Origin: an uncultured Planctomycetales bacterium
Lineage (GTDB): Bacteria > Omnitrophota > Gorgyraeia > Gygaellales > Profunditerraquicolaceae
Assembly (NCBI GenBank): GCA_964645795.1
Contig: CAZYCL010000008.1
Location: forward strand, 8,166 to 72,165
Direction of reading: 5' to 3'
DNA length: 64,000 nucleotides
The notes under the pieces are model-generated. The model was given only the letters and a program-made list of their open reading frames with translations. It was not told the DNA's origin and ran no database searches. Positions 18,001 to 32,473 of the stretch are shown here, one piece after another. The position numbers and the translations under genes were made by a program. Position 1 is the first letter of the stretch, and each line of letters begins with the position of its first letter.

Positions 18001-20646
18001 GCCGATTACTCCGTTAGTTGCGCCAATAAGAGGAGCGATAGCGTTCTTTCCGATATCAATACCCAATATAGGAGCTTTATCTTTCCAGCTGGAGATCAGG
18101 CCGTCTTTGAGAGCAGCGCTTCCGTAGAAGTTAACTTCGTAATTCTGGCCCTTATCATTGAAGCGGGCGTTAAGCGCCATGCCCTCGATATCCTTGCGGG
18201 TATAGTGCATGATCTTCTGGTTGTCTTCGAGCGCAATGGTCGCTCCGTTAATTCTAAGCGGATCTCTTATCCAGTCGTTTGCCTGCCCTATGGGCCTCAA
18301 AGCCTGGGTGTTGGTAAGCAAGGGGATGTGCGAACCTTCGTTATTAAACCAGAGTTTTTGTTCTTTGGTGGCGATAACCTCCAGAAGGTCGTTCCTGTTG
18401 CCAATAGTAATGTTGCCGTAGGTACCGATGCTCTTAGGATATACGGGGTCAGCAGCCGAGCCGGAACCGAGTATCTGATTGGTAACCACTGCCTTGCCGT
18501 TTGAACCGGCAAAGGCGTTCAGGCGGCCGGTATTGGTGTAATCAAACCCCGCCAGATCCAGTTTGCCGGTCTGTTTGCCGTCAAGCCAGGTAGTAATATC
18601 GCCTCTAGAAACGCTCTTCTCCATTGAACCCGCCCCGATAATGTTGCCTTGATGGTCGAACTCCTGGCGGGAGCCCTCTTTGATCCTCATATCAATAAGA
18701 TTGGTAGTTATGGATTTGCCTATGGGCAGAGCGTAAGAAACGGAATAATTGGTTTCAGGATTCTTGGTGACCACGCTCATCCCAAAAGGATGAAGGTTTA
18801 GGGACCTTCCGCTTGCCGGAGAAGACTCGATGCGGAAACCGCTAGCTCCGCTATTCTCAAACATCTTATTCCTGAACTCCATTCCGGAGACCAACGGTAT
18901 TGCCTGGCTGCCGTATCCAGAAGTAAATAGCGTGTCTCCGGGACGGGCGTGCAGGCCGGCGCGGGTGAAGTTTAAAGTAAAGTCACCCTGGGCATTGGCG
19001 GGATGTATTTCCATCACGCTTAAGCCTTGCGGCGCGGATTGAACGGGCTTTACGGAAAAGATATTGTTGTACGGCGTGGGGGCCGAGGAAGGCCGGTCAT
19101 CGAAGTTCGAGGCCACTTCAGGGGAACGCAAGGTGTTCATGTAGGTAGACATGTCCCACCTTAAGCTTCCCGGCTGCAGGTTCTGGAAAGATCTTTGGCT
19201 AAGGTTAGTGCTAAAGTTAAGATCGCCTATCTTGCTGCCGATCCAAACGGTGGTGCCGTCTTTGACTTTGCCTTTCCTGGCATCGAGGCCCGTATCAAAT
19301 AAGGCCTGCGCATAATTCTTATACCCGGTGGAGTTGATCCTGCTCCAGACATCTCCCTTGACATCAAAGTTAACGTAATTGTTGGAGGTAAGCCTGGTGT
19401 TGCCGTGCCAGGCGCCGCTCAACACTCCGTTATTATATGTGGTGCTGATATAGCCGTTCTTAAACCACTGGTTAATGCCGCCACTTACCATTGCCGGTGC
19501 GCCGTTATTGGCATATTGGGTATTGCGATAGGATGTCTTAAAACCGTAGACATCGGTGGTGACCGTATTCCTGCTTAAGCGGCCGGGTTCGGTGAAATTC
19601 ATGGTGAAGGTCACCGGTTTAAAGCTATTGTTATTAGAACGAGTAATGTTCTGGGTAAGATTAAGCTGGGCATTGGGATTTGAGGCCGAGTTATAACCCT
19701 GGCTGCTCTGGCCTACCGCGTTATTGTTGTACTTATAGCTGGAATCCTTGTTCTGCCTCTGGGTCCTGAATCTGTCCTGGCCAAACTGCCCCCAGTCAGC
19801 CGCGCCCATGACCTTCTGCGCTTCTGCCTGCGAAAGAAGCCGGGTATTTTCGTTGGCGGTCAAGATCAAGGCGTTTCCGGAGAACCTTTCGGAGAACTTT
19901 TCCAAAGGCAGGTATGATTCCGTATGCTCATCAACGAAATAAACTTTATCAACGGTAATTCTGGTAACTAAAATATAGTGGTCCCCGTTTAAGTGGGCGA
20001 TGAAAGGGGCCAATTCAGTTGTGCCGGTTGGCCAGTTGGCCAGTTGGCCAGTTAAATCTATATTTACGGGATAAAGCTTGGTGCCGAAGAATTCAGAGGC
20101 ACGGGAAAGGGCATAAAGGGAGTTCTTGACTACTGCGGGATCGCCTTCGGGCCTGATCACTCCGTTTAAGATGTCGGTAGTGAGGGCCAGGACCGCGATA
20201 TCCTGCTCAACTACTTCAATGCCCTGATAACGCAGGAAGTCATAAAGCGCCTTGGCGCCGCAGGGCCTGTTTTTCAACCAATTGTATATCTCTTCGATCC
20301 TGGACTTGGATAGGTTAAGCGGCTTTTCCAGTTCAATGGCGATCTCCGGTGAAAGACGGATGGAGGTAATCGGCTTGCCGGCAACTTCATTTAAAATATT
20401 ACGGACTGCAAAAGGAATATCAAACTGCGGATTGGTGTTTAATGGGGAGGCGGTATAAAGCTCTGCACCGGGCCTGTTCCAGAGCACTCGCCAATCATAC
20501 TCAACTGCCTGGGCAACCTGCTCAGGAACGAATACGCATACCACTAAAAAAGCCACCACTCTTATCCAGCGCTTAAAACCGGACTTGAACGGCGGCTGAA
20601 CTTCTGTCGCCTGCGCATCGCTTACGGTAATGGGGGCTACTTTCAT
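1..20646 (-). CDS. Giant secreted multidomain protein, over 6,882 aa, C-terminus truncated by the window edge. N-terminal signal anchor, internal ~240-aa Gly/Ala-rich repeat modules, trypsin-like S1 peptidase domain, C-terminal SLT/lysozyme-like region.
   Basis: Hand translation of the minus strand from ATG at 20646..20644 (MKVAPITVSDAQ..., followed by a hydrophobic segment WIRVVAFLVVCVFV) shows no stop through position 1. The frame is confirmed at three distant points: the start codon, GRPGDSGSPYLV at about 4445-4470 with TNTHV at about 4840, and G(R)MQ/EV motifs at about 250-450. Plus-strand ORFs in this span are all short shadow ORFs. The ORF track omits it, probably because it has no stop inside the window. 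Confidence 0.8.
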   Translation of the reverse strand, partial: MKVAPITVSDAQATEVQPPFKSGFKRWIRVVAFLVVCVFVPEQVAQAVEYDWRVLWNRPGAELYTASPLNTNPQFDIPFAVRNILNEVAGKPITSIRLSPEIAIELEKPLNLSKSRIEEIYNWLKNRPCGAKALYDFLRYQGIEVVEQDIAVLALTTDILNGVIRPEGDPAVVKNSLYALSRASEFFGTKLYPVNIDLTGQLANWPTGTTELAPFIAHLNGDHYILVTRITVDKVYFVDEHTESYLPLEKFSERFSGNALILTANENTRLLSQAEAQKVMGAADWGQFGQDRFRTQRQNKDSSYKYNNNAVGQSSQGYNSASNPNAQLNLTQNITRSNNNSFKPVTFTMNFTEPGRLSRNTVTTDVYGFKTSYRNTQYANNGAPAMVSGGINQWFKNGYISTTYNNGVLSGAWHGNTRLTSNNYVNFDVKGDVWSRINSTGYKNYAQALFDTGLDARKGKVKDGTTVWIGSKIGDLNFSTNLSQRSFQNLQPGSLRWDMSTYMNTLRSPEVASNFDDRPSSAPTPYNNIFSVKPVQSAPQGLSVMEIHPANAQGDFTLNFTRAGLHARPGDTLFTSGYGSQAIPLVSGMEFRNKMFENSGASGFRIESSPASGRSLNLHPFGMSVVTKNPETNYSVSYALPIGKSITTNLIDMRIKEGSRQEFDHQGNIIGAGSMEKSVSRGDITTWLDGKQTGKLDLAGFDYTNTGRLNAFAGSNGKAVVTNQILGSGSAADPVYPKSIGTYGNITIGNRNDLLEVIATKEQKLWFNNEGSHIPLLTNTQALRPIGQANDWIRDPLRINGATIALEDNQKIMHYTRKDIEGMALNARFNDKGQNYEVNFYGSAALKDGLISSWKDKAPILGIDIGKNAIAPLIGATNGVIGSQNNLLLPKSIADRQQWDLSKNKRQEFDFTIHEANLSALDKDYNYQGEPRQLLDAARRSLKLTLNPADITRGAAAVNLGIQAKQFIFPSQVASVAAANNDSDNAGANIAKQKVTSWSLKEVAPYIYEANSATGKEQRAAWLHVDTKSLRSNIDTTPMFESAKFNVAGDMNKFVRAVQLDNKGLVNGEIIAFAANDYNPVTGIGSNLSGRKLELNNAGIVRGTSAKSGWVNINSLGTGFIEVSGAKNTIQAANIALNKVNFWVRDVAGDMRFDNFSIGKASEFRNGQEGRELAIKTRLDNHKPVIDILSKHELLLKQLPKASFDQPSAQKEAPESTLPAMDITPTVKAGRTLANKQRVDFILNNLGSTNVGLSGNLTNVTFNATKNIDKLTLGVQDPLSRGARVIGIRPSGIDKVKFDSQQRMVTENVGEFYKGIDTATDSFAMVLTDVEKIKQNNDVKLARVIYAGILQNQKFVNGEKPTDQAIALIEAEVNKMNINQLTSKIEAKIKEGGGKLAVSTPEVIIARGVNFERTLIKAPGADKPGEYFYKDGGFSLSRIDFKDGTKRTDITPGISPADERGINSLYIDITGKAPAFGKQMGPMVSGVEQQPANSVEPANVSYRQTNFGVENNKVFGENQRISFAPGALFSARANAELDLSNTELTGMKNFVWLGLARQANDNGMTGYAGIMTHGKNSAFFNKQQQLAGIDENFLISSTWSNINALLDAKMLHRINNINDVPDELLEPLAADLKVTVGDKANLRSDIAKVIQAKDFNKIVTTAFKEGVNADGVSFSRMITGVKDAAAEYSYAHFSLDKLTFKDKYSISSSGLKAGIGSDAQPYIDLKGDKDGYERAFGAFSAASQNQAAEPPASGRDPVTSNFKFDKAGYGLANNQRLLFNNNSLFSPTGSLSLDTRNATFTGVDNVIASGWGFNPHPVVVDMSKARLQDYWSFGLERLFSEDLTKKLLAIDNDHNSKDKEKKKQEAIKAEFKAFDDRYRDVLDKNKALKGGKLIGVVPNSANDAAEFITLEIKVGKKTIKAAFFPFIEKPTFIPLTKGNKGILAAKAAENLGLDKNTDLKIGKIKGNGPLNRLFNVNGKTKRVTVETGGTRRTVREWVTYTSTDSLGNEEAKKVALLKRKHLMDHTGKDLGSKVSTRSFTGSVNNNSSSVSTYTEYLVAKRKEAVTELHTNNAVYKQGYYKITPANEVNQFTVIELMKKNPGYGSEYSMHSTEKLLVENMIYIKDGIAYSSDNAKELGRAYCKAKGISYFAVPNSDWNINDKNSSSLLYFNADGTAINPKDISQGAIYAAIGTDIHGIGTASKGVREMVTIKHSPSINHREALLLDCEVLHKLPDLGIKDPNNVLSGVMSVRPIGYTEAILVKDGREIGVIGPDAFNEILGADEGKKLYEDLQRKSIIGNEGRIGNLPQYSKLKLDKAYESHRDRIYAVLFQADNHFIKTGLNNEGEAGVILDPSTGAVQEVVRKKLVYKNSGEAAGHSYYITNSLSLPSGDYVRYERMNYRHGDKTNSFYCKGVNGDQRVSLEEQNAVINPELEMRAIGLVKQALFSRRNKQFFKALIMSDISIGDLGESRPAGYRSEFHNTDRIFKKITIDLQDNEGNVVNKSLNELMSLNRSDLRAQGFKPRKERLAQRNAIYANYKLNEALATGQFKDLGIVNIAHPVYMSVLISNHAKTIGDLYDRAKLNGLTPVLPLDKSFTVGALNTYATAGVIVVGTTILSGGLAGPEWAAVLAAGSVGAAGSIASTAVLKYGMTGDHITGGEMAVAGVTGFVASGAAAWAKSATLARLSTDLKALQAAGKAGASAGNLATAIDRSRQSLSWVRMSGIIRNTSNLGKLEGAGANIFKTVETLKKGTDIAKVGTMGMATRNLSTTGSLFWVNSSLAIDQFGSISSSGRAMNLGEGFKSLGTSYAWLLAPSVLFGASKNILSRVASSTMNPWAKYGGTTLAGASAGYLVDSYKTGNWTKFDSSKLLHMGGGALLFNGAVLTAAKGGRAAKAVKGAVDGATKWIAAEAPAALRYTSAAAGGAGIGYLADSVITGNWGFKEEGMIFDTPNWSKIAAMAGGAAVGFTGSRVAAKYGKGMGAGLYTGWAKGITPKDFTVLETRFYKIGKAARLTAEKGGMPLRGAASGYTASSFISGKWGLNNQEGNFDWDKLGMTLGGGLLGVGFGKDIAAAANPLNKAAKTSSYVKFAGAALMAPGLSAGLKNRLPEDSWLNEHKVLAMAIPAAAVLLGAGAIKYNKALLNFIKHPATLGAMGGAGAGYLADSLATGNWGFKEEGMIFDTPNWSKIVAMGSGAVIGATTVYAVNRNPVIKEGFRGGAKGLEKEVIAKEFATGALRRQIESQQKLFDISYAVGKNIKPVGAAIRSPLLGAGAGYLTESAITGNWKFKDEKGWDVAKIVAMTGGAAAFSAIDFIRWGKLIDGAKLAKGLNSAGSAVKKGFVATRLYTNKALIPVGDLVGWRNPAVFLGGSTAAAQADLRHPMVNELGAAAVIPGLLLNPGRGILATAGNIGNFLGIRNDVAKRVDMVKYQERLLFNDMLRENIGGIGSSVIAYAFYRADSLIQAASGSYSIRAIGNLKETALSFFDSVNKAKETLKELNYNEIPEDKWVEFGMIFGSMVGGARGLKQLAGQLRQAAIAESRTYLNLRSAAAEAKAVAPNVPLSVSVPQFLSRVHRDAKNLVYINTAFTIGMPLIMNYGPNGYGFSEFLDQVYNAAYQKDEIASGAVGAAFIWRGATGITKAVSHSRLGNWANAQLNKFDNASFGKQAAIAGGSLAGGSTLHWLGTSEKIGIQDKAAGVILSHIGLLAAGTGAVLLARSITKLPAYQRFLNRGRIGTEVKIAKDAGKFKESEFFTGTTGEQMKVTKEGVLIKNKGPNGADILIKNKERVQIKLANGEIKTKAVPFSRDWLFGTGEEAMSGRWQGLAHQIKYTTAWGTAGALAGYLRYTQDKKAGKEFAENGALPYLLMGAGIGAFGLKNLPKLSRTAAHWGVQGLGIAGTGALIYSGKKLTFDPLAGIFEESLDPAKKGKGGLNYWQRARTYLFTKHDVLEIDQYNPIGADGKYNYKVVGQANDWSYALFMGALARGLANVGKVARKSYRGHDLKSPKGFWYGLRKEGINSNIIRGGQQLGEFKQALKQPQTYTSAVLPLAGGIGAYYLGKSDKLKDTTFGKVLRYGGIALAGYGALQTLGVLGGNLSPAEWQKLGTKMGLGKAGSHILGAGKYLTYDFALRGTIGNLFTVIAPLYGVIEATSLLTHKFIVPSASTDFEKSLWRSTFGAFWVPGEDGNIQNYIDIVGVNGQAWKNANGLDQKFNLALKVINRAYSVGLFGYKTDEEGNSTGEARIKSLKDGLAWDRSKDVVGNARVWFDNFDNSNLRFSAILAVLQPMAEPILSNIKRANFGKHFQAIGKGMEETFSAKAILGTAPRLASTQGALSAGRVMDMAITGTIEETLSEQVIQMGLSVLPWTVVGNPQLAALISEVLQETLSPFGAGARNYMPTRREALRMVNSALSSKYTPADAKMLPLLNKAKEDLENLKTNTAEDVIGAVLPVLSHQVNNPSTGSTFDLAGYARQAINKRFGIDEKINIELVGLNKLVNKETNTLVTAQYSEGTLKMDVGKNFIFDFDKSGNLTFTPSVVAVYNAIHEKEHDIIKRVQQDNLGLIKNPQERAQYDNMLKVISGVLGISVPELNLEISEWDPNEMVVQYFSLLDLAEYVKTHPGHSYGNDFGTENMKDLIERTTNQDFDSFSDAVGALNAKSGWRDTVTENAREKKQVLHSTGNFLFDVVDFVQWTNGNRVKRMRPMVQGPDDEYDKRVAKVYQAIVAAGGNIDPDDYDIKVVRNGGTKDSLAFTSEKNIGTMLVNERALRGIPEDTRLMVYLHDGHHVLFELKENKQSGFSKNKLDELISLAKDNENLKHALNGMIDYFRHTYDNIVTDVVAGIDIKGLNDNDAVKVSAQELKDKRERIATSRHFDSQVPPVEGKVNPNQLVLSALDLLIAKAESGTVTVADIKAFAAFKDILAKSDHGVAIELFGHLNPFLFTESEKSAALFTLKNRQMEVLNFAAALKQYDTDGKVRKFLSKLNEEIGMPDKVSSPVKAAEASSSPLFAKLKKNRALAAEKDYLSKTLKMEEEYITEPLKELSLLLNKAGMGPEMRRPIITHTSYGRKDIGETIKMLDSATLSDMKSLADNLVIKAHISDYAAGSILSQIIDRGDMEDVTPAVNSLLDGLSRLKLAENYEDINRDIFDRILQQPGVSANNAAVAVGSLINKLSDLDVSASDVQLFLMDAVLADKDIESSARKLEEQLALVLPGQAQQDKLQSIKQAMESGRDELSRTIVKVSPVGKDHSPNAGATGYVVGQTQDLYFVMTNTHVAKDKVFALETMKGEKITDATVVMTLVRDKFSGIPFGPGFMREKMNAAKGDLALLAVKKSDLKGQTLVPVELAGPKTIESIQSNPATLVSARNDLNLVTGQPVYIGNRIILINPLGKGRPGDSGSPYLVKTDKGYVALATNSVGTPFTDNPAGAVVSPQVLEDMLKAVDNERSSYTLATKDSSLISGTKEFLTAKAKTISSPLKASKDADYSLAKRQDIFTQAFVTTLAAVTGQKIKVSSVKQQDISAPEVKSLSATDLGGGAGSGFGIGAGGSGRGKGIGAGGSGFGRVPTFKQPKITLDKAKVFKYNTKELPLNRLPEPSEVPLGDTRQPLGLPAVPVSAPTAPVSNAPVGNSGLGGVGSIVGSVFSSSFSPAMALSAAASPIMPMDIGGVLVLNVNNLKFSDPIADHTAGLAPPAGPLLANFIDFVAQNLAKLMGISAAIAAKQAGFDKVSEGSLKLSERTRGAESATEERAGANDPQPAVSKEVRLAADVKLLEAASPLRENFSTNEAISKNLVPVSSTSASDPTRGECISSPISENGLILKSRMARLLVILTKAQLNYRLEAPNGEILPEEETRQMFFDSAESVSNSIVNEAGDAKKLMLRRRVFEDKNEVEKTRVEAINGLEAWFDRAVNELGLDAEDLKQLEIDAIGEDNADNNKRVGAKIRLNKNDDALKLLVAEGKSTLGKLVATNEDLKKVLSLEALDANTKYLIVKILESQQKMEAELKEVKEEATVANEKATVANEKATVANEKANVAVKGVVKYLNTDNPVDCLIFAIYALVGEKSGEKIESAIRMRRAEGKKVSLKDAIGIAQDLLGVFALSEDALRNMPQRLLDRLILMKKADDRLYHAFNVIGRNGDKLIISEDNASALTIIGKEVLISELFKKNGEIIAIGLNTEARSFENAGARKVGKEEIEEISDEEVNDLQGDGNGGGSGAGIGAGADAGSGSGAGVGGSAAGDSDTEKEDDYAFGASPVIHYSYIEGAANTASISAAYVLSSTSTTGAAVAFNTYSTSVANKQDGISLANIDGAVELEKDMLRSGKAVLYNRALNYSNNYKPYRFEGNLTLNGNRNLIKDFNKVLTNYRFSVNSTLSTELASVDNETKDKESKNTEKKETAINNATDEISRNSVKNAAVLNIVHSIFNHSLARNSSSAEFGFKSMPHAAPYSHAPPVEASDVINLPVNLAANANQSFAVNAGNNFPGLDNIGLKINLVYTIKATDPKATYHYSLAPPMFTSIDKAASPINASEARRVTELTLITSASKENKVPAALKAGLSATLNTNLLNVNGDINKQALSAIVAKSLSQIRNNSNISSPVKYDLAKKIVFLTSSLFLGKQEAWKFANEWAAERDAEREAARLNKAAKLSKASKPASRAKIAAKVVLWSILTLGALKTFQLADGFKPHASKEAAYAALNDQAMRSYIERTLALYLGKDEAAKFFEASEYSNGTVRNTKGILTALNRVEENRENIIKYSNKYGVDPEFVAAVMFYEVLDLTPFERVLDVFGSVVKPTTAGRMQIGYDAYLTIYPKYDGSRVRLAYIMVNNDAKNIDAGAKYIAYLMKLGQNKYGLNGNDLLLKVAASYTATPFTSGILKNMPKPPFD
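2551..2631 (-). repeat. 21-bp perfect tandem repeat (3 full copies plus 1 partial) inside the giant CDS, encoding (ATVANEK)n
   Basis: agctttttcatttgctactgt is repeated head-to-tail. It is in frame (a multiple of 3) and translates to EKATVANEKATVANEKATVANEKANVA. Confidence 0.85.
20017..20042 (-). repeat. 8-bp tandem repeat (ttggccag x3) about 200 codons into the giant CDS
   Basis: ggttggccagttggccagttggccagtt is read directly. The unit length is not a multiple of 3, so gain or loss of one unit would frameshift the giant gene. Confidence 0.8.
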
Positions 20647-21187
20647 TTTATTATTAATAATAAATAATATAAAATGAAGCTTCTCCTTTATCACTAACGC
20701 CAGATTTTTCACTGCGTCTGCGATTTTTCTCATCACCGATTTTTAAAGCTTTAAAAAACTGCTTTTTAATGCCCTAAAAATAACGCCTGGAACTCTTTCC
20801 CAGTGCATCAAAATTATAACATAATATATATATGAGTCAAGAAAAAAAACCCGAAAAATTTAAGCGCTTACTTTTTCAAATAGAGGTATAAAATTAACTA
20901 AATCATAAGTGTTACAACAACTAGCTAGAATGAGTAAAAAGCCAAACTTTCTTATAAATTCCCATAAAGGGGACAAAGGAGAGGTTAAAAGAGTGCCTCA
21001 ATAAACACTTATGCTGGCTTCTTTCTTGGAATTGATTTAAGCAATATTCTGAATGAATAATCAATCCTTTCAAAATAATCATCCAGATGTTTAGATTGGA
21101 CATTGACTACTAACATAGTGCAGTTTGGACATAAATTTTTATTTAATAGTAAATTGGACATTGTTTTGGATCATGCAAGCAACCAAT
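20647..21187 (-). promoter_or_regulatory. 540-bp AT-rich upstream/leader region of the giant gene with three phased TTGGACAT octamers (ATGTCCAA on the gene strand)
   Basis: TTGGACAT at 21096-21103, 21125-21132 and 21154-21161, with 29-bp spacing. There is no long ORF, and no canonical SD near the ATG at 20646. Confidence 0.5.
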
Positions 21188-22219
21188 TTAATTATCGTTA
21201 CGGATAGACACACTTGTCTGAATAAGCGAATCTAGGGTTATAGGTTGAGGGTCAGGTCGATTATCTAAGTATTGGCGTTCATATACCGGAAAGCTGGCCT
21301 TTTTTTCGATTAGGCGGTTTATAGGCTGAAAAGCGGCCTTATGGAGTTTGCTATTATAAGAAGCGTCTAGTAAACCACCTTGATAATCTCCTGGAGCGTA
21401 ATCATTAACATCTATCACCTCAAGATAGCTATCTTTGCTCGGCGCATCGTAATTCCAGGCACTCCAATAGCCATTCGGACCTGATTCCGACCCCTCAAAA
21501 TGCTCAAGCTTGCCGCGCAAAACGACCGTGCTCGTTCCATAGCCATTCCTGGCCCTGTCTCCAGTCAGTTTCGGTTGGTCGATATTCAAATTCGAAATCG
21601 ATTCTGCCCTATCTCCTTCTATATATTCTATTACTCTCTCAGCATCCTTGGCCTGATAGGTAGTCTTACCTTTTTTAAAGTAGCGCTTAAACTGGCTCAA
21701 GGACTTATCAGACACCTCATAAGAAGAGGCTTGCCATTTTCCGTACTTTTGGGGCAAGCCTAAGCTCATGCGGAAGGCATCGTACTGGGATTGACGCTGC
21801 GAATCTTCCTTATCCATATCCCAACCGTATTTGGCGTATTCATTATCTTCCTTGGTGTTAGTTAGAACCGCCTTGAGTATACTGCTCCAGGGCCGGTGTT
21901 TAGTGCCCAGGCTAATGCCCTGAGGATAGATATTCTCGGTGATCCTCTCGCTTAATCCAAAGGGAAGCTGGTTCTCGATCAATTCATCATTAATGCCGTA
22001 TTCGTCAAATTGCCCGTCGTTGGGCATATACGGCATCTTGGTAGAGTATTTCTTTCCCTCGAATTTAAAGCTCTTTTTGCCTTCCCTCTTAGCCTTGTCA
22101 CGCGCCTCTATCCATTTGGGCTCTTTTAATCGAAGGTTCAAGCCAGAATTGTTGAGCTCATACATCTTCGGGCTATCTTTGATCATCTCCTGCGAAGGAG
22201 GCTCGTAAGAGACGAACAT
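21188..22219 (-). CDS. Hypothetical 343-aa protein, probably the C-terminal extension of the upstream 2,294-aa protein via the A10 frameshift site
   Basis: ORF track. Its reading frame is open upstream all the way into the A10 tract at 22419-22428. GGAG abuts the ATG with zero spacing, so there is no credible RBS. No recognizable domain. Confidence 0.6.
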   Translation of the reverse strand: MFVSYEPPSQEMIKDSPKMYELNNSGLNLRLKEPKWIEARDKAKREGKKSFKFEGKKYSTKMPYMPNDGQFDEYGINDELIENQLPFGLSERITENIYPQGISLGTKHRPWSSILKAVLTNTKEDNEYAKYGWDMDKEDSQRQSQYDAFRMSLGLPQKYGKWQASSYEVSDKSLSQFKRYFKKGKTTYQAKDAERVIEYIEGDRAESISNLNIDQPKLTGDRARNGYGTSTVVLRGKLEHFEGSESGPNGYWSAWNYDAPSKDSYLEVIDVNDYAPGDYQGGLLDASYNSKLHKAAFQPINRLIEKKASFPVYERQYLDNRPDPQPITLDSLIQTSVSIRNDN

Positions 22220-22410
22220 CTCCGCCGCATCCGATCTGTCGCTTATCGAACCGCCGGACCCGCCGCGGCCTCCGCCATCATCAAAGGCAAGCAGGCTGTA
22301 ATCGTCTACGGCATGCAGCTTTTGCAGCGATTGAACGACTATATCGCTTTTTTCATTGACGGGCTGGCTATTTTTCTTTCCTACGGACGGGGCATTGGTA
22401 GTTTCGTTGT

Positions 22411-25400
22411 TTACTTTATTTTTTTTTTACCGGTGGGCACAGCTGTTACAGGGGCGATGATTTTGTTCAAATCGGGCGTAGGATTCGGCAATTGATTGAT
22501 CGTTCTAAGCGGTATAGGCCTTGTAATAGCGAGGTCATCCTCCAGAGTCGACAGCCAATTGGGATTATTGAGAATCTTGGCGGGGTTCCTCTCAATGAAG
22601 GTAAAAACTCCGCCTGATTCATTCGATTCATCGCTTGTTAAAAGCTTATCCAGCTTAACCAGGTTGCTAATTACTTGTTCGTAATTATCTTCGGTGATGC
22701 TGCCGTTCCTGCAGGCTCCTACCAGGATATTTTGCGCACCTTCGGTCAAAATGTAGGTTTTACTCATTACCTTTCGCTCCAGGTCGGGGTTATTAATCGG
22801 TGTAAAGCCGGATATCTGATTTTGACTGGCCGAGACTTGCGGGGTATTTGCGGGCTTGCCAAGCTGGCGCAGGTCATTTAACAGAGAGGCTTGCGTATAT
22901 GTAACTACCGGCACGATATCGATATCCTCGTCATCGTCGACATCCTGAGGCATGCTTAATAGGTCGTCTTTGAAAGTAGACAGCCAGTTCGGATTACCCG
23001 CTATTTTTGCGGAATTAGTAACAAGGAAGTAATCAACTCCTCCCATCTCCTTGTTTACCTCTCTAAGCGTCTTAATAACATCTTGATAGTTAGACTCAGT
23101 TATACTCCCGTTCCTACAGGCAGAGATCAAGGTTTCCTGAGCCTCTTCCCTAAAAGTTTGCGTAGAGTACCTGACCTTTTTCTCTAGTTCGGTATTATTT
23201 ATCGGAGTAAACGCCGATTTATCCGCAACGACTTGCTCTAATTTAGCCAATTGCGTATTTTGAGATCTGTTTTCTTCGATTGCCGCGAGGTTATCAATCG
23301 AAGTGGTTGGTGAGGGAATATTCAAATTGGCATCTTGGGGATCGTTTTTAACCGGCTTAGCCAGGGGTAAAGCAGCGGTTGGCAGATTTTCATCCGGGAA
23401 TTCCTTAACCGGATTGATAATTAAAACCGGATTACTATTGATATCCGCGTCGGTTGTCTTAGGGTTATTGACCGGCACTGTATTGTCTGGCTCATTCATC
23501 CAGTTTAATCGGTTTCCAGGGTCTCTAAGCGGGCCGTGCATAACAGGATCGAAGTTCTCGGGCGCCTCCTCCTGCTTAATATCATTGTTTTTCACGATAT
23601 CTTGAGCCTGCTTCTGCAGGATTAACTCCATAGTAGCTTCCCTTGCGGATTGCGGACTCGAACTTAATGAATTGTTTATTGAATATATAGTATTGTTTAC
23701 TTCAATCAACTTCTTATTGTCTACCGGTTCTACATTGTTGGCAATCAAATCATTCTTTATAGGCTGCTTAACGGGATCAATCAACTGCCCTATATGTCCC
23801 CTAGCATAAGTATTGAGGTCAGACGGATTGATCCCGGAGGTAACAACCTTTTTGGAGTTGAACTCCGTCTTTTTAAAGATCGGATCGGCTCCGATGAATG
23901 TCCTGTCCACGCTTGAGCCATCTTCGCCGAGCTCCTCTGTGAAGGTAGTCCTGAAGGCACCGTAATGATCGGAGCTTTCCGGGCCGCCTGAAACAAAGGT
24001 CTTGCCGGATATATAATGCAGCTGCATGGATTGTAAGGCATTGCCGATAACAAAAGCATCCTGGTCATCGGGATTGCCTGAAGGAGACAGCGCGTCCGCT
24101 GCTTTTTGATCCTGGTCTTTTACAAACTCCCTTATACCCTGCCTGATCTCATCCTCGACATAATTATAGGAAGATAATCTCTTAAAACCCTGCATCTTAC
24201 CGTCGTTGACTTGCTCCTGGATATCTATGCTCCATTTAGGAAGAGGGATCCAGTCGGAGAAGGCCTGCGTGCCCGGGGCAGTAACACCCTTAAATCTCTG
24301 ATACTCAGATACCCTTACCCCGCTATAGGAAGAGCCGGGTGAAACAACATTCTGCGCATCCACGCGGTGCGACGGCCCGATATAAGGACTGTAGCCCTTT
24401 GAGCCTTCATAAAGGGTAAGGCTGTATGAGGTAGAAGGAGCGCCCCCTGCCAGCGTACCGGCAGCCCGATTAGACGGCCCCCTAAGAGAAAGGTCGGGTT
24501 CGGGCAGCTTGAACCCGGTTACGGATATCGGCTCAAGGCGCGGCAGAGGAACGTATTCTCCGTCGAAAACACGCAGGTGTTCTCCGGATTGTAACGGGAT
24601 ATGGTCCACATTGGGCTTGACATTGCCTCTGATATAAGGCTTAAGTTGCGATGCGTCGCCCTCAAACCGCTCTCCTGTTCCTTCATTCTTATATACAGCT
24701 TGGCCTTCTTCGGTATTAGAGCGCACATAAGACCGGCCTTTTGCGTCCTTATAATAAAGACGGTCGCCGTAGCGGCTAAGCAGCTGCGGGTTCAGGTCTA
24801 CCAGTGAGGCGCCCGTAGATTCATCGGTAATAAGCCATTGACGGCCACCATCTCTGGTCTCGGAAGGAAGCCAGGTCTTGGAAAAAAACCAGGCGGTCTG
24901 CTTCAATTCGCCGTCTTTGGATATGCCTTCTTCTACCTGGGCATATAAATCTCCGTTCGGACCCTCCACCAACAATCCGCGTTGCGCTTCAGGAAGTTTA
25001 TTCTTAAACTCATCGAGTTTCTTATCAGCCGCCTCTGCGGATTCTGTATATGATCGAAGTCCGGAAGTATTTATCGCAGATACTATGTCTTTATTGGTTT
25101 GTACCTCTATCCCGGCATTATCCGGCTTAGAAGCAGGCGGAGTATAACTGGGGCGGGCATCGGAATAATCCCTGGTTACCGATAAGGCATGGCCAAAAGG
25201 ACCGTAATAATGCGTTGAGACCCTGTCCAGCTGCACGCCCTGCCAGTCATTGGAATCCAGGCTCAACCTCTCGCCAGAGTAGTAATAGGTGTTGAGCATC
25301 CTGCCGAAGCGGTCAACCGTGGTATACTCAGCAAGCATGGGAGTCGAGCTGTGGTAGAAATCCACGCCCTTCTTAAGGCTGTCAACGACCCCCAGCAGAC

Positions 25401-28400
25401 GGTCAACGGAAGGAGCTTCTCCGTCCGGGCCTTTAGCGCCCTCATAAATCCACTTGAAGTTCTCTTTTATCTCTTCGACAAGCCTTAGCTTATCTTCTTG
25501 CGGCAAATCAGTCAGCTTCGTATTGGCTGTGATTGAGTTCTTGATGGTGGAGTTACTCAAAATATTGGTATCAGCTAAATCGAAATCATTCGGTCCGCCG
25601 ACAGAACCCCTGTAGAGGTTTCTAAAAACCACCTGGCCTTGTGAGACTCCTGCGCGCGAGAGATAATAACTATTATCGATATAATCCGTGACCGCGAACT
25701 TAAGCCGATCTCTTATGTTCCTGGCCGTCTCAAGATCACCGTTTGTTTCCGCCTCTATGGCGCGCTGCTCCAGCGCGTTCATCACATCCGGCATATTGCT
25801 TATTTCCGGGCTTATTACCTGGCTGTTTGTAGTGTAATCATAAATGGAATTATTCATAAAGACGGCGTAATTATCGAAGTTATCCGGCATAAACGCCCAA
25901 TTATTTACTGAAGCGGATAAGGATTCAGCAAGGTTCATGTCGGCACGGTAACTTAAATTAGAGGCTATGCGCATATTGTCGGCGTCAATGACAGTCCCGC
26001 CCTGGGAGATGACGCTTATATGTTGAGTGAACTTATCGCGCACTCCCCACTGGTTCATAAAGGCATTGGGCCCGGTGCCGCTGGCGCGGTAATTGACCGG
26101 CAGCAGGACGCTGTCAACAATAGCTTCGTAGAACTGCTGGCTGGCATCTCCCACCACGCCTCCAACGAAGGTCGTATCTGAACCGTATGCGCTTTTAAGA
26201 TCCTGGTTGCCCTGCTTATTCTGCCTAAAGATAGCATCGACTGTGCCGGCGATAAGGCTTGAGGCTCCCAAGTGCACCAGCTCATTTACGGCGGTAGGGG
26301 TAATCTCTTTTTCTTTGCAGTAATAACCCCAGCCTATTTCGCTAGCGGCAAAGAAGACGTTTTCCACGCTCTTGGCCCCGAGGTTACGCCAGTAACCAAG
26401 CGAACCCCTGGTCTGGAAAGGATTGTTGTATACTTTCTTGGTCTTATAGACTTTTTCTTCGCTTATTTCGCCCGTTACAGGATCTATTACGAATACAGTT
26501 AATTCCTTTCCATGTTTTTTCACAGGCACAAATTCGGTCTTTCCGGTATCTTTATTGAATCTCGTCTTATAAACCTCTGTGCCCTTATCACCCATAATCA
26601 CCCTGCCCTGGAACCAATCCCAGTTGGTAAAGGCTTCGGAGGTAATATTTGCACCGACGTTGGCAACGGCCATCTTGGCCTTATTCATGAACATCTTCTT
26701 ATAGTCAGTATTGCCGTAATAAGTTTCATAATTCATCACTTCCAACAACGCTACTCTTGTGGCGGTAGCAATAATCGGAGTAAGCCCCATGGTACGCATT
26801 GCTTCAAATCCTGAACGTAAACCAAGGCGGTTCTTCAGGGTGTTAATATCCCTGCCGTCCAGGGTGTACATCAGGCCGCCGGTATGCGCGAAGACGTTTT
26901 GGTATACCTGGTTGCTAATCGCTCCTTCATAGACTTTTAGGCCGTTAATAACCTGATCATTAACATCGTTAGGCGCAAGCTGGTATATTGTTCCGTCAGC
27001 CGCTTTTATGCTGTATGGTTTATCCGGATTGCTGGATATCTGTCCAAGTAAGCTAGAATTGACCAGTTCGTCGATTGTTAAAGTGACCAGCTCTGCCTTA
27101 TCTTGGCCAGCCCGGGTCAATTTAAGCGTTATAGTCTGATTGGGATCGCCTAAGGCGAGCACTCCGTACTGACCGATGGACTTAACCCCTTCCTGCAACT
27201 GCCCAGCAGCAACAGCCATGCCTGTTTTGTAAGCCTTGGCTGACTCTAGCATTTCTGCGGTTATGTCGCTTCCCTTAAGCAAGACCTTCTGACCAGTAGT
27301 CGTAAGGGTTATCTCTACAACATCATTAGGCTTTAAGTTTTGGAGCTTGTCCAGGTTAGCGGCAACGGTAGCTATGGTGACCTTTTCCCGGTAAGCGGCA
27401 TCGGGGTTGACAACTTGCAAGGCGTCCAACTTGCCCTGCACATCCAAATACATATATTGTTTTACCTGTTCAACGACTCCGGAAGCGATAAGCTCCTGAA
27501 CTGAGACTTTAACTTTGCTTCCATCTGAGCCTATTAATTCGTAGGCCCCATTGGGATCTATCTTGCCTAAACGAATGTCTTCTTCGACTTTCGAGTACAC
27601 TTCCCCGATGGTAGTCTTTACCCCGCCCAGGGTAACTTCAGTATCAGCGCTTAAATCGTTGGAGATATTTGCCACGTTCACTATCTGGGCCAGTTGCGCG
27701 GCCTGTTCGACATATGACTGATATTGCTTTACCACGCTTGATTTAAGCAGCTCTTCGCCGGTTATCTCGCTAATTGTCCCGTTAGAGGTCGAAATCTTAT
27801 ACACTTCTTCTTTTTTTATCTGGCCTTTTAAAATGGCTTCCTTGAGGCTTGCGTCATTTAATACTTCGTTAAGAGTAATGCTTCCTTTTACCACGCCGTT
27901 GCCTATTTGCTGGGCAGCCGCAACAGCGATTATCCCATTTAGATAGGTTTTGATACCTATTATTGCCTCGTTGTTAACATCGATATCGTTTGCCGACACA
28001 TAGATTATCTTACCGTTACGATTGACTTCATACACCGCATCCTTGGTTAGAGCGCCGTCATCCAACAGGTCAGCTACAAAGGCTTCGCAGGCTGCCAGCT
28101 CTCCGCCGCTGACACCCTTCTTCTTGCCTTTCTTATCTATGCCGTAGGCGACGTCGCTCTGCCCATCCGAAAGATACGCGCCCTGGTTGTCGAGCTTACC
28201 GCCTTCAGCGCGAGCTATCATCGGGGCAAGGGTATTCTGGACAAAGGCTGCGGCGTAATTGCCAACCATGTCGCCGACTATCTGGGCGACAGTCTCGTCA
28301 ACCGGGCCGATGATCTTCTTGCCCTTTTTAGTATATATGCCTTCCTCGAGGTTCTGCTTTACGTACTCGGAGACAAACAGACGCACAGTCCCGGATATGA

Positions 28401-29295
28401 CGTCCAGGGCAAAATACGACAGGGCGTGGATCAGGCCATTGACCGGGCTAGTAAGCATCTCCTGGCCGAACCTGATATAGGGGTTGGCACCTACGGCAGA
28501 AAGCCTGAAAATCCCCCCTACTGTTTCGTCCGAGTACTGGCTGAAGTTCCTGATAATCTGCTTTACCTTCTGGATAGGGGTATCCCATATGGGCTTGAGG
28601 ATGTTCTTGTACACCCAAACAGCGGCCTTCTTAATCGCGTTACATACGGGCTTAATCACATTATTAAAGAACCACACGAGCGCATTCCATACCGCCTTAA
28701 GCGCATCCATAACCGCCTTTTTAATGGCCTGAATAATCTGGCCTATAATGGTATTGGCAACAACGCTGGTGGTGGTCTGGACAACTACCTGCGTACCGAC
28801 ACTAGTCGCAGTTTGAGTTCCGGCTTGAGTTAAAACTTGAGTCCCTGTATCTGCAGCTGTCCCTGCAAGGGCTTCGGTCCCTGCCTGCGTTCCTACTTCA
28901 GTGCCGACATCAGCGCCTCCCTCAATAAGGCCGCTGACTATACCGCCTACGAGGCTTGCAGCGCAACCTGCTACCATTGACCAAAACTGGCCTTTCGTGA
29001 TCTTGACCTTGCCGACTTCGATCATTGTTTCGCCATAGGTGTCGTACATGGCGAAATAAAGTATGGTGCCGACACCATCACTAACTATGGAGCTAACGCA
29101 GCCCCATACAGGGTTTATGAGACAGCCCACAGCAATACCTACTCCGCTGATCGCCCCTGCTCCCATAGACTCAAGCGTAGTGGTAGTGCCATAATTACCC
29201 GACCTGGCAAATGCAGGGGGCGTAAGGGAAGAAAAAAAGAAGGCAAACGCGGTGATAAGGCTGATTACTTTTATAAATTTACTTTTTCTTTTCAT
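22411..29295 (-). CDS. Giant secreted protein, 2,294 aa. Signal peptide, Gly/Thr/Gln-rich and amphipathic-helix N-terminal region, tandem-duplicated ~105-aa C-terminal module.
   Basis: ORF track. N-terminus is MKRKSKFIKVISLITAFAFFFSSLTPPAFA. The C-terminus contains two homologous modules (FTPINNxxLExKV...ACRNGSITExNYxxVIxxL...NPNWLSTxxDDL). No catalytic motif recognized. Confidence 0.8.
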   Translation of the reverse strand: MKRKSKFIKVISLITAFAFFFSSLTPPAFARSGNYGTTTTLESMGAGAISGVGIAVGCLINPVWGCVSSIVSDGVGTILYFAMYDTYGETMIEVGKVKITKGQFWSMVAGCAASLVGGIVSGLIEGGADVGTEVGTQAGTEALAGTAADTGTQVLTQAGTQTATSVGTQVVVQTTTSVVANTIIGQIIQAIKKAVMDALKAVWNALVWFFNNVIKPVCNAIKKAAVWVYKNILKPIWDTPIQKVKQIIRNFSQYSDETVGGIFRLSAVGANPYIRFGQEMLTSPVNGLIHALSYFALDVISGTVRLFVSEYVKQNLEEGIYTKKGKKIIGPVDETVAQIVGDMVGNYAAAFVQNTLAPMIARAEGGKLDNQGAYLSDGQSDVAYGIDKKGKKKGVSGGELAACEAFVADLLDDGALTKDAVYEVNRNGKIIYVSANDIDVNNEAIIGIKTYLNGIIAVAAAQQIGNGVVKGSITLNEVLNDASLKEAILKGQIKKEEVYKISTSNGTISEITGEELLKSSVVKQYQSYVEQAAQLAQIVNVANISNDLSADTEVTLGGVKTTIGEVYSKVEEDIRLGKIDPNGAYELIGSDGSKVKVSVQELIASGVVEQVKQYMYLDVQGKLDALQVVNPDAAYREKVTIATVAANLDKLQNLKPNDVVEITLTTTGQKVLLKGSDITAEMLESAKAYKTGMAVAAGQLQEGVKSIGQYGVLALGDPNQTITLKLTRAGQDKAELVTLTIDELVNSSLLGQISSNPDKPYSIKAADGTIYQLAPNDVNDQVINGLKVYEGAISNQVYQNVFAHTGGLMYTLDGRDINTLKNRLGLRSGFEAMRTMGLTPIIATATRVALLEVMNYETYYGNTDYKKMFMNKAKMAVANVGANITSEAFTNWDWFQGRVIMGDKGTEVYKTRFNKDTGKTEFVPVKKHGKELTVFVIDPVTGEISEEKVYKTKKVYNNPFQTRGSLGYWRNLGAKSVENVFFAASEIGWGYYCKEKEITPTAVNELVHLGASSLIAGTVDAIFRQNKQGNQDLKSAYGSDTTFVGGVVGDASQQFYEAIVDSVLLPVNYRASGTGPNAFMNQWGVRDKFTQHISVISQGGTVIDADNMRIASNLSYRADMNLAESLSASVNNWAFMPDNFDNYAVFMNNSIYDYTTNSQVISPEISNMPDVMNALEQRAIEAETNGDLETARNIRDRLKFAVTDYIDNSYYLSRAGVSQGQVVFRNLYRGSVGGPNDFDLADTNILSNSTIKNSITANTKLTDLPQEDKLRLVEEIKENFKWIYEGAKGPDGEAPSVDRLLGVVDSLKKGVDFYHSSTPMLAEYTTVDRFGRMLNTYYYSGERLSLDSNDWQGVQLDRVSTHYYGPFGHALSVTRDYSDARPSYTPPASKPDNAGIEVQTNKDIVSAINTSGLRSYTESAEAADKKLDEFKNKLPEAQRGLLVEGPNGDLYAQVEEGISKDGELKQTAWFFSKTWLPSETRDGGRQWLITDESTGASLVDLNPQLLSRYGDRLYYKDAKGRSYVRSNTEEGQAVYKNEGTGERFEGDASQLKPYIRGNVKPNVDHIPLQSGEHLRVFDGEYVPLPRLEPISVTGFKLPEPDLSLRGPSNRAAGTLAGGAPSTSYSLTLYEGSKGYSPYIGPSHRVDAQNVVSPGSSYSGVRVSEYQRFKGVTAPGTQAFSDWIPLPKWSIDIQEQVNDGKMQGFKRLSSYNYVEDEIRQGIREFVKDQDQKAADALSPSGNPDDQDAFVIGNALQSMQLHYISGKTFVSGGPESSDHYGAFRTTFTEELGEDGSSVDRTFIGADPIFKKTEFNSKKVVTSGINPSDLNTYARGHIGQLIDPVKQPIKNDLIANNVEPVDNKKLIEVNNTIYSINNSLSSSPQSAREATMELILQKQAQDIVKNNDIKQEEAPENFDPVMHGPLRDPGNRLNWMNEPDNTVPVNNPKTTDADINSNPVLIINPVKEFPDENLPTAALPLAKPVKNDPQDANLNIPSPTTSIDNLAAIEENRSQNTQLAKLEQVVADKSAFTPINNTELEKKVRYSTQTFREEAQETLISACRNGSITESNYQDVIKTLREVNKEMGGVDYFLVTNSAKIAGNPNWLSTFKDDLLSMPQDVDDDEDIDIVPVVTYTQASLLNDLRQLGKPANTPQVSASQNQISGFTPINNPDLERKVMSKTYILTEGAQNILVGACRNGSITEDNYEQVISNLVKLDKLLTSDESNESGGVFTFIERNPAKILNNPNWLSTLEDDLAITRPIPLRTINQLPNPTPDLNKIIAPVTAVPTGKKKIK
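22419..22428 (-). other. A10 homopolymer (slippery tract) at the 3' end of the 2,294-aa CDS. Candidate -1 frameshift, transcriptional slippage or phase-variation site.
   Basis: Minus strand reads CCG GTA AAA AAA AAA ATA AAG TAA. The -1 frame from inside the A run continues with no stop for 68 codons into the ATG of the 343-aa ORF. Confidence 0.6.
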
Positions 29296-31009: not shown

Positions 31010-31543
31010 CTAGTGCAGGCGCATGCTGTGCAAGATGCGCTTGAACATCCTTTTGTAGATACGGTAGTCATCCTCCGAGGCGACACAGGTGACGATATAC
31101 ACCCTGCCGCGGGAGAACCAGGCAGCGGTATTGAAGATGAGGGTTATGGCGGTGAGCTTACTTTCGAAGTAAAGGCTCCTGCCGGGGTTAAACCCGGAGA
31201 AGATCCTGCTTTCTTCCATGTTCTTGACGTTGGGGATGGTATTCTCGATCTCCTGCTTGTTGGCCTCGAAGAACTGCTCCATGGAGATCTCGGCGGGCAT
31301 ATCTTTGACGATAACGTTGATATTGGCCTGGAACTTGTTTGGGATCCTGGCGTATTTGGGGTCCTTCACCAATATCGCCATGCCCTTGAGATTGGCCTTC
31401 TCCTGCTTCCAGTTCCTGGGCAGAAGTATGGAGAACTGGTTCTTCTTGTCCTCATAGAGCCTTACGGGCTGGAAAAAGCTGCAGCCTGAAACCAAGAGTG
31501 CCAGCGAAAGGAAAAAAGCTAAAAATCTGATATTTCTAATCAT
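31010..31543 (-). CDS. Lipoprotein of unknown function (signal peptide plus lipobox LVSGC)
   Basis: ORF track. MIRNIRFLAFFLSLALLVSGC; no further identification. Confidence 0.6.
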   Translation of the reverse strand: MIRNIRFLAFFLSLALLVSGCSFFQPVRLYEDKKNQFSILLPRNWKQEKANLKGMAILVKDPKYARIPNKFQANINVIVKDMPAEISMEQFFEANKQEIENTIPNVKNMEESRIFSGFNPGRSLYFESKLTAITLIFNTAAWFSRGRVYIVTCVASEDDYRIYKRMFKRILHSMRLH

Positions 31544-31579: not shown

Positions 31580-32467
31580 CTACATTTTGGGGATGAGGCT
31601 GCCTTCCATGAATTTTAGCATGATAGGGCCGGCCACGACAATCATAATAGCCGGAAGAATGCAAAAAAGCAAGGGAAAAAGTATCTTCAGGGATGCCTTG
31701 ATAGCGTAGCGCTCACCGTTCTGGAAACGCCTATCGCGGGTATCTTCGGATATGTTCCTGAAAGTCTCCTCCAGTGGCGTACCCATACGCTCTGCCTGGA
31801 CAATGGTGCGCACAAAGGTATTTATATCCATGCTTTCAAGGCGGCGCGCCATGTCTTTGAGCGCCTCAGTGCGGGTCTTGCCCATCTTGGTTTCATTCAG
31901 GACCATCTCCAGCTGTTCGATAAAGGGATCAGTGTCGCTTTTTTCAATCAACCACTTTACCGATGTAAGAAAATCGGCTCCCGCGCTTATGCACATATCC
32001 AAGAGATCCACAGTCTCGGGAAAGATCATGATTATAGCTTCTTTTTTGGCCTTGACCCTGTTCAAGAGGATCATATCGGGAACGAAAAACCCCAGCAGCA
32101 GCCCGCCCACGGCGTAAAGCATGTTGTAAAACGAGACGTAAAGCACCAGTGCCGCCACAATGCCCAAGACAAGCTTCTGCAGGAGCAACAAAGACATGTC
32201 CTGGCGTATCTTGAACACCTCACAGCGGCTTCTCAGTTTTTTGAAATACGGCATATTGGCCCAGGGCCGGAAGAGCGCAACGACAGGCTGGAATAATTTT
32301 GATTCGGAGAAAGGGACCTTTTTTTTGGCGGAAAGCGGGCCGATGGTCCCCGGACGGTTAAACAGGCTGGGCCTGGACTCCAGCCTGTTGAAAAGCACTC
32401 CTATCGACAAAAGAAAGGCTGCCGCTCCGACTAGAATCAATACCAATATAAAAGACGGTGTAATCAT
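31580..32467 (-). CDS. tadC: Tad pilus assembly inner-membrane protein, TadC-like (T2SS-F domain)
   Basis: 295 aa. Membrane helices flank a cytoplasmic T2SSF-like domain. Adjacent to a TadB-like paralog and pilin genes. Confidence 0.65.
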   Translation of the reverse strand: MITPSFILVLILVGAAAFLLSIGVLFNRLESRPSLFNRPGTIGPLSAKKKVPFSESKLFQPVVALFRPWANMPYFKKLRSRCEVFKIRQDMSLLLLQKLVLGIVAALVLYVSFYNMLYAVGGLLLGFFVPDMILLNRVKAKKEAIIMIFPETVDLLDMCISAGADFLTSVKWLIEKSDTDPFIEQLEMVLNETKMGKTRTEALKDMARRLESMDINTFVRTIVQAERMGTPLEETFRNISEDTRDRRFQNGERYAIKASLKILFPLLFCILPAIMIVVAGPIMLKFMEGSLIPKM

Positions 32468-32473
32468 GCGCTT

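Follow-up and report, generated by a model that had tools for sequence, protein, structure and literature searches.

In Omnitrophota, giant genes occur alongside secretion machinery. Passages of West-Roberts et al. 2023 (10.1101/2023.11.21.568195) describe giants with an N-terminal C39 domain that follow a secretion locus of more than 10 subunits, including gspD, gspE, gspF, rcpC, and a Rotamase_2 peptidylprolyl isomerase (PPIase). In the consulted sections of Nielsen & Lui 2026 (10.64898/2026.06.07.730766), no architecture cluster of Omnitrophota proteins with at least 10,000 amino acids is larger than that of C39. Excerpts of these two sources and of Seymour et al. 2023 (PMC10066038) propose a role for the giants in prey attachment and cell-wall attack, and the portions consulted treat open reading frames (ORFs) of ~7,000 or more residues (at least 20 kb) or of 10,000 or more. 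Here, we describe a smaller neighbor of such a giant, a 2,294-residue protein encoded on the minus strand at 22411..29295 of a 64,000-nucleotide stretch of contig CAZYCL010000008.1 (assembly GCA_964645795.1; hereafter, the window), to which coordinates refer unless another locus is named.

The window carries an Omnitrophota-type locus, in which co-oriented gspD, gspE, two gspF-TadBC, RcpC, and Rotamase_2 genes lie upstream of the ORF and an ORF of at least 20 kb, with C39 near a signal-like N-terminus, lies downstream. It shares with the published loci (passages of 10.1101/2023.11.21.568195, PMC10066038, and 10.64898/2026.06.07.730766) the placement of operon genes upstream of a C39 giant, a signal peptide with hydrophobic helices, and mostly unannotated sequence. 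Unlike the published giants, the protein belongs to a family with its own constant body and variable ends, which has no detectable sequence in common with the neighboring giant. A conserved protein of 1,400 to 3,800 residues between the secretion operon and the giant goes unmentioned in the passages of all three sources. The locus type is already known; the partner family, its junction motif, and its frameshifted end are undescribed as far as could be found in these portions of the literature.

With roughly even confidence, and arguing from architecture, we read the protein as belonging to a predatory or epibiotic attachment apparatus, where it would associate with a membrane and carry variable cassettes after export by Sec. 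The reading draws on a constant body with variable ends, linkage to a Tad-like operon and a giant, and envelope domains in some relatives. The protein would be exported by Sec, and a Gly-rich hydrophobic hairpin would hold it in, or insert it into, the membrane. It would then display interchangeable distal cassettes, either on the cell surface or to the envelope of a target cell, and would work with the Tad-like machine and the giant in attachment or predation. The variable part would here consist of a disordered Asn/Pro-rich spacer, two modules serving as spacer or binding units, and a junction motif with a ~343-residue cassette, shared with locus L016, that only a −1 shift within an A10 tract would make accessible.

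A rare family with a constant body

The ORF begins with ATG, has the same GC content as the surrounding sequence, and encodes a protein identical to P0001 of a public collection. When the full protein was searched against a word index of 5.8 billion proteins, only itself and one relative, P0002 (29% identity over 1,444 residues, E 3e-128; 33% identity in the first 455 residues), came back. A 33-sequence family alignment used in the same search returned two proteins, the candidate list probably having been filled by low-complexity words. A profile of the core retrieved 44 proteins at E ≤ 1e-3 from 1.84 billion representatives, 26 of them at E ≤ 1e-30, and one genome locus and seven metagenome loci were found in addition. 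Locus L002 is the ORF's own gene in an independent Logan assembly and not a separate relative. Nearly all full-length members are 1,400 to 3,800 residues long. Sequence searches of Pfam, NCBIfam, and PDB with the whole protein came back empty, as did a profile search of PDB built on six relatives. The ORF is thus a genuine gene, and the protein family to which it belongs is rare and unannotated; an earlier note made from the DNA letters alone had read the product as a secreted protein. Because the protein is conserved in relatives, low-complexity noise is excluded as its explanation. That note had named noise without conservation in related genomes as the outcome that would overturn it; conservation fails for the duplicated module but holds for the protein as a whole.

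The constant body of the family opens with a Sec-type signal peptide and a Gly-rich hairpin domain. Amphipathic helices follow, then repeats of a beta-hairpin plus a helix, and then a large core of helical and beta structure. Conservation falls in two regions, the first ~130 residues and several core blocks with inserts of differing length between them. The first region runs from PAWA/REGNYG (the slash marking putative cleavage) through a Gly/Ala/Ser-rich hydrophobic hairpin, YY..Y..YG, and I[ST]KGQ.WSM.AG to a second hydrophobic helix. The core blocks are TGG.., P.GTG.NA..QDKF, TVD.FGR..YY..HYYGPFG, and GPN..Y....Y.TG.G.SPY.GP. The ORF carries the family N-terminus and the core blocks, a match that is partly circular, the ORF being one of two seeds; every block is also matched by independent relatives. 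Nearly invariant positions are taken up by Gly, Ala, Pro, aromatics, and two Asp. No pattern of Cys, His, or Ser suggestive of catalysis appears in the family alignment, and the core has no conserved residues of that type, in keeping with the earlier observation that no catalytic signature is detectable. The features on which that first description dwelt (Gly-Thr-Gln repeats, amphipathic helices, and the duplicated module) turn out to be the least conserved parts; what is conserved is the N-terminal hairpin domain and the core, from about residue 800 to 1817.

Residues 1 to 30 (29206..29295; features of the ORF lie on the minus strand throughout) read MKRKSKFIKVISLITAFAFFFSSLTPPAFA and are followed by RSGNYG. 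With a basic n-region, a ~20-residue hydrophobic core, and AFA at positions −3 to −1, this N-terminus has, to the eye, the shape of a Sec signal peptide with putative cleavage between AFA and RS. The region is kept across the family (consensus W.SA..AL.FL.N...PAWA/REGNYG), and the proposed export signal is supported. A prepilin or Flp pilin reading of GNYG was rejected: the hydrophobic segment is Sec-type with AxA before the Gly, and the Glu after GNYG is not conserved in P0002 to P0005.

Residues 37 to 131 (28903..29187) form a conserved Gly/Ala/Ser-rich hydrophobic domain, which hydropathy (peaks of 1.7 to 1.85) and AlphaFold describe as a helical hairpin, a beta-hairpin, and a helix. Its predicted local distance difference test (pLDDT) values are 74 to 89, G47, G51, Y80, Y84, G95, G102, S106, and M107 are nearly invariant, and it is probably embedded in the membrane. 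The Gly-Thr-Gln stretch pointed out previously was located at residues 127 to 169, in a linker taken to span residues 129 to 176 (28768..28911). It is present but low in complexity (T 27%, V 17%, A 15%, G 13%, and Q 11%), and its sequence is not kept among relatives; because its pLDDT is 25 to 29, it is probably a disordered linker.

Amphipathic helices occupy residues 180 to 259 (28519..28758). They include NNVIKPVCNAIKKAAVWVYKNILKPIW (NNVIKP...KPIW) at residues 211 to 237, within a predicted long helix spanning residues 180 to 238 (pLDDT 45 to 57), where the reported NxIKPxxNAIKKAAVWVYKNILKPIW-type segment was thus located. Weak PHROG matches at residues 179 to 345, to the 1,338-position "endolysin" family phrog_971 (6.9e-7) and the tape-measure family phrog_8927 (9.4e-5), raise the question of a phage-derived tape-measure or ejection-type protein with long helices, membrane segments, and cell-wall hydrolase add-ons. 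The protein resembles tape-measure proteins in being long and mostly helical with hydrophobic segments, and the M23 and LysM domains of some relatives would correspond to their optional add-ons. The PHROG matches are confined, however, to the repetitive amphipathic segment and are absent for P0002; the match weighed against tape-measure proteins covers only residues 181 to 258. No match below E 0.02 emerged from the BFVD fold search, and neither the window nor any related locus holds a phage gene. The protein also bears a Sec signal peptide. To our knowledge, such a signal is not a feature of tape-measure proteins. We regard a phage origin as largely refuted and extremely improbable.

Beyond the amphipathic segment lies a conserved helical block (ANPY.R.G ... 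SEY.KQNLEEG ... DET.A; residues 270 to 380, 28156..28488), with pLDDT 84 to 92 and nearly invariant D298, D333, and A337. Approximately five degenerate repeat units, each pairing a beta-hairpin with a helix, may be discerned at residues 470 to 805 (26881..27888) from AlphaFold secondary structure and a manual alignment of five segments (MAFFT); BLAST self-comparison did not detect them, and a regular-expression count was no higher than in shuffled sequences. The family-defining core spans residues 806 to 1817 (23845..26880) and contains the blocks TGGLMYT, GTGPNAFMNQW, TVDRFGR..YYY..HYYGPFGH, and ..Y.L.LY.G.G.SPY.GPS. It is closed by FIGADPIFKKTEF at residues 1800 to 1812, the ORF's copy of the end-of-body block.

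AlphaFold models were built in two parts with multiple sequence alignments of 33 to 34 sequences. Residues 1 to 1160 gave a compact helical arrangement (mean pLDDT 64, predicted template modeling [pTM] score 0.60), in which the long-helix core at residues 800 to 1145 reached pLDDT 75 to 94. The model of residues 1150 to 2294 was poor (mean pLDDT 47.6), with only two beta blocks predicted confidently: residues 1324 to 1380 (TVDRFGR...HYYGPFGH; pLDDT 82 to 93, about four predicted strands) and residues 1619 to 1740 (pLDDT 80 to 95). A Foldseek search of the predicted fold against PDB and BFVD found nothing below E 0.02, and the conserved body thus appears to have no known structural relative at the Foldseek sensitivity used.

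Linkage to a Tad-like operon and a C39 giant

A complete Tad operon resembling a type II secretion system (T2SS) lies upstream of the ORF and in the same orientation (31580..49515, minus strand; Pfam Secretin, T2SSE, two T2SSF, RcpC, Rotamase_2, and Tad). Its genes encode a PPIase (Rotamase_2), RcpC/CpaB, a secretin-TonB_C protein, TadZ-TadA, a TadE/G-like protein, TadB, and TadC, followed by a PsbP-fold lipoprotein that closes the operon (31010..31543, minus strand; lipobox LVSGC; Pfam PsbP 3.9e-9). On the other side, the giant gene (1..20742, minus strand) has a signal-like hydrophobic N-terminus and a stop-free frame of at least 6,914 residues that runs off the window. Translated from 20742, this frame shows a Peptidase_C39-like domain at residues 211 to 298 (E 9.7e-6). 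No other Pfam match was obtained for the giant, in which only three further strongly hydrophobic segments occur over ~6,900 residues. The ORF thus stands head-to-tail with the giant beside a pilus locus, as originally described, and the two proteins share no detectable sequence.

Synteny was counted over the window and the other distinct loci with readable flanks. The genes immediately preceding the family gene are those for TadB, TadC, and a PsbP-like lipoprotein in the window, L001, L003, L004, and L007/L008. Immediately after the family gene comes a giant or otherwise long ORF in the window, L001, L003, L004 (11,961 residues), L005 (C39), L009 (at least 5,704 residues), and L010, and the downstream giant likewise bears C39 in L001, L003, and L005. 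The family sits between TadB/TadC with the PsbP-like lipoprotein and a C39 giant in most readable loci. Orthologues of the lipoprotein were found at L001 573-1100, L003 5382-5909, L004 7891-9004 (two copies), and L007 9125-9577 and in L008, and wherever a related locus shows the operon, its final gene encodes a PsbP-fold lipoprotein (lipobox L..GC). We know of no PsbP-fold lipoprotein described as a Tad component; it could be a pilotin or a holdase.

So stable a position, maintained across relatives of ~30% identity, also suits a structural or assembly part of the secretion apparatus or of the giant, such as a membrane platform, an anchor, or a dedicated export or holdase partner for the C39 protein. 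The most conserved parts, a core devoid of catalytic residues and an N-terminal domain of membrane-like character, fit such a part, as does the compact helical arrangement of the first AlphaFold model. Against it, extensions of near zero to ~1,700 residues carrying M23, LysM, or OmpA would be unexpected, Pfam shows no similarity to a known Tad, T2SS, or type IV pilus component, the N-terminus lacks a class III (prepilin) signal, and two loci (L005 and L006) lack an adjacent Tad operon. We assign this explanation a low probability.

Variable ends and a duplicated module

In the family, the body closes with the block IG[ST]DP.F.K..F, after which lineages diverge. Extensions past this block range from near zero (a stop within ~100 residues) to ~1,700 residues. 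Pfam domains detected in extensions or inserts of relatives include Peptidase_M23 (P0012), OmpA (P0024), LysM (P0027), HopBA1/Tiki (P0008), and a weak Peptidase_M48 with HExxH (P0039, with a tail homologous to the one in P0002). An all-against-all comparison of tails revealed a few recurring cassette types common to different core lineages; the tail of the ORF matches none of them. One such type is a ~350-residue C-terminal domain common to the distant members P0011, P0014, and P0029 at 38 to 46% identity.

Several tails have features of their own. The domain of P0011, P0014, and P0029 is unannotated and contains conserved His and Cys, including ...HIALTFEDWW.H..DP.G.YKTDWS.I.SH.R.GLGPQGDFD, and P0014 also has a lytic transglycosylase-like motif, as judged by eye. 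The C-terminal ~200 residues of P0005 and of the L003 family protein contain H(R)GH...(S/G)C(G/S)xG motifs, for which Pfam returns nothing; these motifs suggest a His/Cys hydrolase.

In the ORF, the body is followed by an Asn/Pro/Asp-rich spacer (residues 1818 to 2024, 23224..23844) that is predicted to be disordered from its composition and a pLDDT of ~30 and has no counterpart in relatives. Two module copies come next, at residues 2025 to 2115 (91 residues, 22951..23223) and 2160 to 2258 (99 residues, 22522..22818). The duplication noted earlier is real, although the copies are shorter than the ~105 residues given for them. They are 53% identical in protein (E 3e-31) and ~60% identical in DNA, and both keep the motifs FTPINN, ACRNGSITE, NPNWLST, and DDL. 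These identities point to an ancient duplication whose two copies have both been kept; Tandem Repeats Finder reported no recent repeat there.

A module profile run against the 43 other family members and six-frame translations of 16 loci and the window found only the two copies, and the 14 other fetched loci, L002 aside as the ORF's own gene, had none. A pattern scan of JGI metagenomes, where a stand-alone version of the domain had been envisaged, gave 126 pattern matches, none of them confirmed. A module alignment in the word-index search likewise returned nothing, a weak negative given that the query itself was also missed. A by-eye likeness of the module to the tail of P0007 was not significant and was dropped. 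Because the module is found nowhere else and its AlphaFold model is unreliable, the targeting or binding role first proposed for it stays a guess. This ~95-residue orphan module is probably a spacer or a binding unit.

An A10 tract and the end of the gene

An A10 homopolymer (22419..22428, minus strand), the only A10/T10 run in the window, lies 5 nucleotides before the stop codon of the ORF, and a −1 shift there joins the ORF to the next frame. That stop-free −1 frame (21191..22426, minus strand) comprises 412 codons, the first 69 of which include no ATG, GTG, or TTG. It encodes the junction motif DDYSLLAFDD..SISDRSDAAEM (22217-22306, minus strand) followed by a 343-residue ORF (21188..22219, minus strand). 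The same motif (..LLAFND...SDAVNPMA..) is part of the family protein's own reading frame in L003, L010, and L016, and P0005 and L013 have a shorter version. The sequence after it differs among L003, L010, L016, and P0005, which marks LLAFND...SDAVNPMA as the apparent start point of variable cassettes in the closest relatives. The cassette that follows the motif in L016 is homologous to the 343-residue ORF (38% identity over 328 residues, E 2e-46). In PDB, the −1 frame matched constructs of paramyxovirus fusion proteins (E 0.0015), a result dismissed as reflecting a GGSGG-like linker.

The simplest reading is that the 2,294-residue and 343-residue ORFs are, or recently were, one gene of ~2,700 codons, whose product of ~2,700 residues may hold the modules internally. 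If so, the spacer and modules would have been inserted after the end-of-body block and ahead of the junction motif. The earlier placement of the modules at the C-terminus holds for the 2,294-residue ORF, in which they come last, but is doubtful for the protein, since homology to relatives continues in the −1 frame past the A10 tract. The break could reflect a homopolymer error (although the independently assembled L002 has the identical A10 run), a real mutation or phase variation, or transcriptional slippage. Programmed −1 ribosomal frameshifting with a stimulatory structure was unsupported (downstream fold z-score 0.41). In L016, a single in-frame TAA (1906-1908) separates the family ORF from the homologue of the 343-residue ORF, and protein homology crosses the stop. 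This second, independent break at another position could denote a pseudogene, read-through, or a true gene boundary.

Divergence directly after a conserved junction motif in L003, L010, L016, and P0005 is also what a polymorphic toxin of the CdiA, Rhs, or MafB kind would show, in which a constant delivery body bears interchangeable C-terminal toxins injected into competitors or prey. The 412-codon frame would then be a displaced orphan cassette kept for recombination. Orphan C-terminal modules of contact-dependent inhibition (CDI) and Rhs loci carry a junction remnant and no start codon, as does the downstream cassette here, and the recurrence of a few cassette types across core lineages fits this picture, as does a constant body with a short motif before divergence, which is limited to the closest clade. 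YD repeats are called to mind by the TVDxFGR...YY...HYYGPFG block, with its predicted beta-hairpins; Pfam gives no RHS_repeat match, though, and where an RHS/YD-repeat shell has multiple repeats, the protein shows one block of about four predicted strands, at residues 1324 to 1380. The Gly-rich hydrophobic N-terminal helices on a large effector-like protein, encoded beside a small protein of PsbP-like fold, further suggest a tentative likeness to prePAAR effectors of the type VI secretion system (T6SS) and their Eag chaperones. The Eag and PsbP folds may be related. Eag (DUF1795) chaperones are, however, cytoplasmic, whereas the PsbP neighbor is a lipoprotein with a Sec/lipobox signal and so is periplasmic. 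In Pfam it matches only PsbP and PsbP_2, not DUF1795, and the Pfam search for PAAR and the search of the window for a T6SS were both negative.

Other evidence also departs from the CdiA, Rhs, and MafB systems. Pfam and NCBIfam show no toxin, PAAR, VENN, TPS, LXG, or RHS_repeat domain in the protein, and the window contains no type V, VI, or VII secretion genes. No plausible immunity gene lies at 20743-21187, which holds just ORFs of 38 to 60 residues and odd composition; in L005, a 108-residue ORF follows P0012. The junction motif occurs in only five of ~fifty members. The main ORF itself lacks an in-frame junction motif, so a displaced orphan cassette is less favored and a frameshifted single gene is the better fit. 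We assign a polymorphic toxin a low probability, equal to that of a structural or assembly part.

Points bearing on the carrier reading

Several considerations weigh against a carrier of variable cassettes. Because the PDB and BFVD fold searches were empty at E < 0.02, "carrier" is argued from architecture and not from homology. Judged by the number of its hydrophobic helices, most of the protein could lie in the cytoplasm. Neither L005 nor L006 has an adjacent Tad operon within 10 kb. Envelope-related domains occur in only four or five of the ~25 relatives scanned, most extensions being unannotated. The AlphaFold models of the modules are unreliable, with pLDDT 40 to 72 and different folds given to the two copies, so nothing can be said about module structure. 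Modeling, which the earlier note had recommended for the modules and the N-terminal repeats, was confident for residues 37 to 131 but not for the modules or the Gly-Thr-Gln stretch. Locus architecture suggests that the family is hosted by genomes of the Planctomycetes-Verrucomicrobia-Chlamydiae superphylum, most probably Omnitrophota; the one labeled relative comes from a metagenome-assembled genome called "uncultured Planctomycetales," the window holds no marker gene, and it is the locus architecture by itself that points to Omnitrophota.

A bolder extension of the carrier reading would have the family, the PsbP-fold lipoprotein, and the Tad/T2SS-like machine constitute a previously unrecognized contact-dependent delivery pathway. 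A membrane-inserting body would carry recombination-swappable cassettes, marked by LLAFND..SDAVNPMA, into prey or host, and the A10 tract would act as a slippage switch choosing the end-piece. We hold this to be distinctly improbable.

Other features of the locus

Within the operon, the Tad secretin (46048-47649, minus strand) carries a C-terminal TonB_C domain in the same polypeptide (Pfam 1.7e-15), an unusual fusion. A 714-residue ORF (43902-46046, minus strand) combines a ParA/MinD-like (TadZ-type) domain with a T2SSE ATPase in an apparent TadZ-TadA fusion. Mid-operon on the opposite strand, a 771-residue ORF (41090-43405, plus strand) has no Pfam match.

Between the operon and the family gene lies a gene of the 23S_rRNA_IVP family, a four-helix bundle (29696-30160, minus strand). 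Such a gene adjoins the family gene or lies a few kb upstream of it, on either strand, in three loci: the window, L004 (9095-9505), and L005 (4461-4826). Sigma-70-like promoter matches, each with an extended −10 TG, precede the giant (20813-20840, minus strand; 11/12) and the ORF (29414-29443, minus strand; 10/12). As consensus matches only, they hint at separate promoters for the two genes.

Near the locus, a three-gene cluster (53030-56712, plus strand) encodes a FIST sensor, a histidine kinase, and a response-regulator/GGDEF protein. In the parts of the literature consulted, cyclic di-GMP signaling is tied to giant-gene loci through PilZ genes behind them.

Implications

Omnitrophota giants are a current puzzle, being huge, poorly conserved, and almost unannotated, with little experimental hold. 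The smaller partner protein offers a tractable entry, as it is well conserved, adjoins the giant in most examined loci, and often directly follows the secretion operon. It can serve as a locus marker and as a candidate for proteomics and localization in the one cultured representative. The M23, LysM, OmpA, and metallopeptidase-like ends point to the envelope of a target cell, and if the junction motif truly marks swappable cassettes, the apparatus would be linked to the logic of polymorphic effectors. The A10 break is a warning that the annotated ends of such genes may differ from the true protein ends. The value of the family lies in a useful handle on an obscure system rather than in a new principle.

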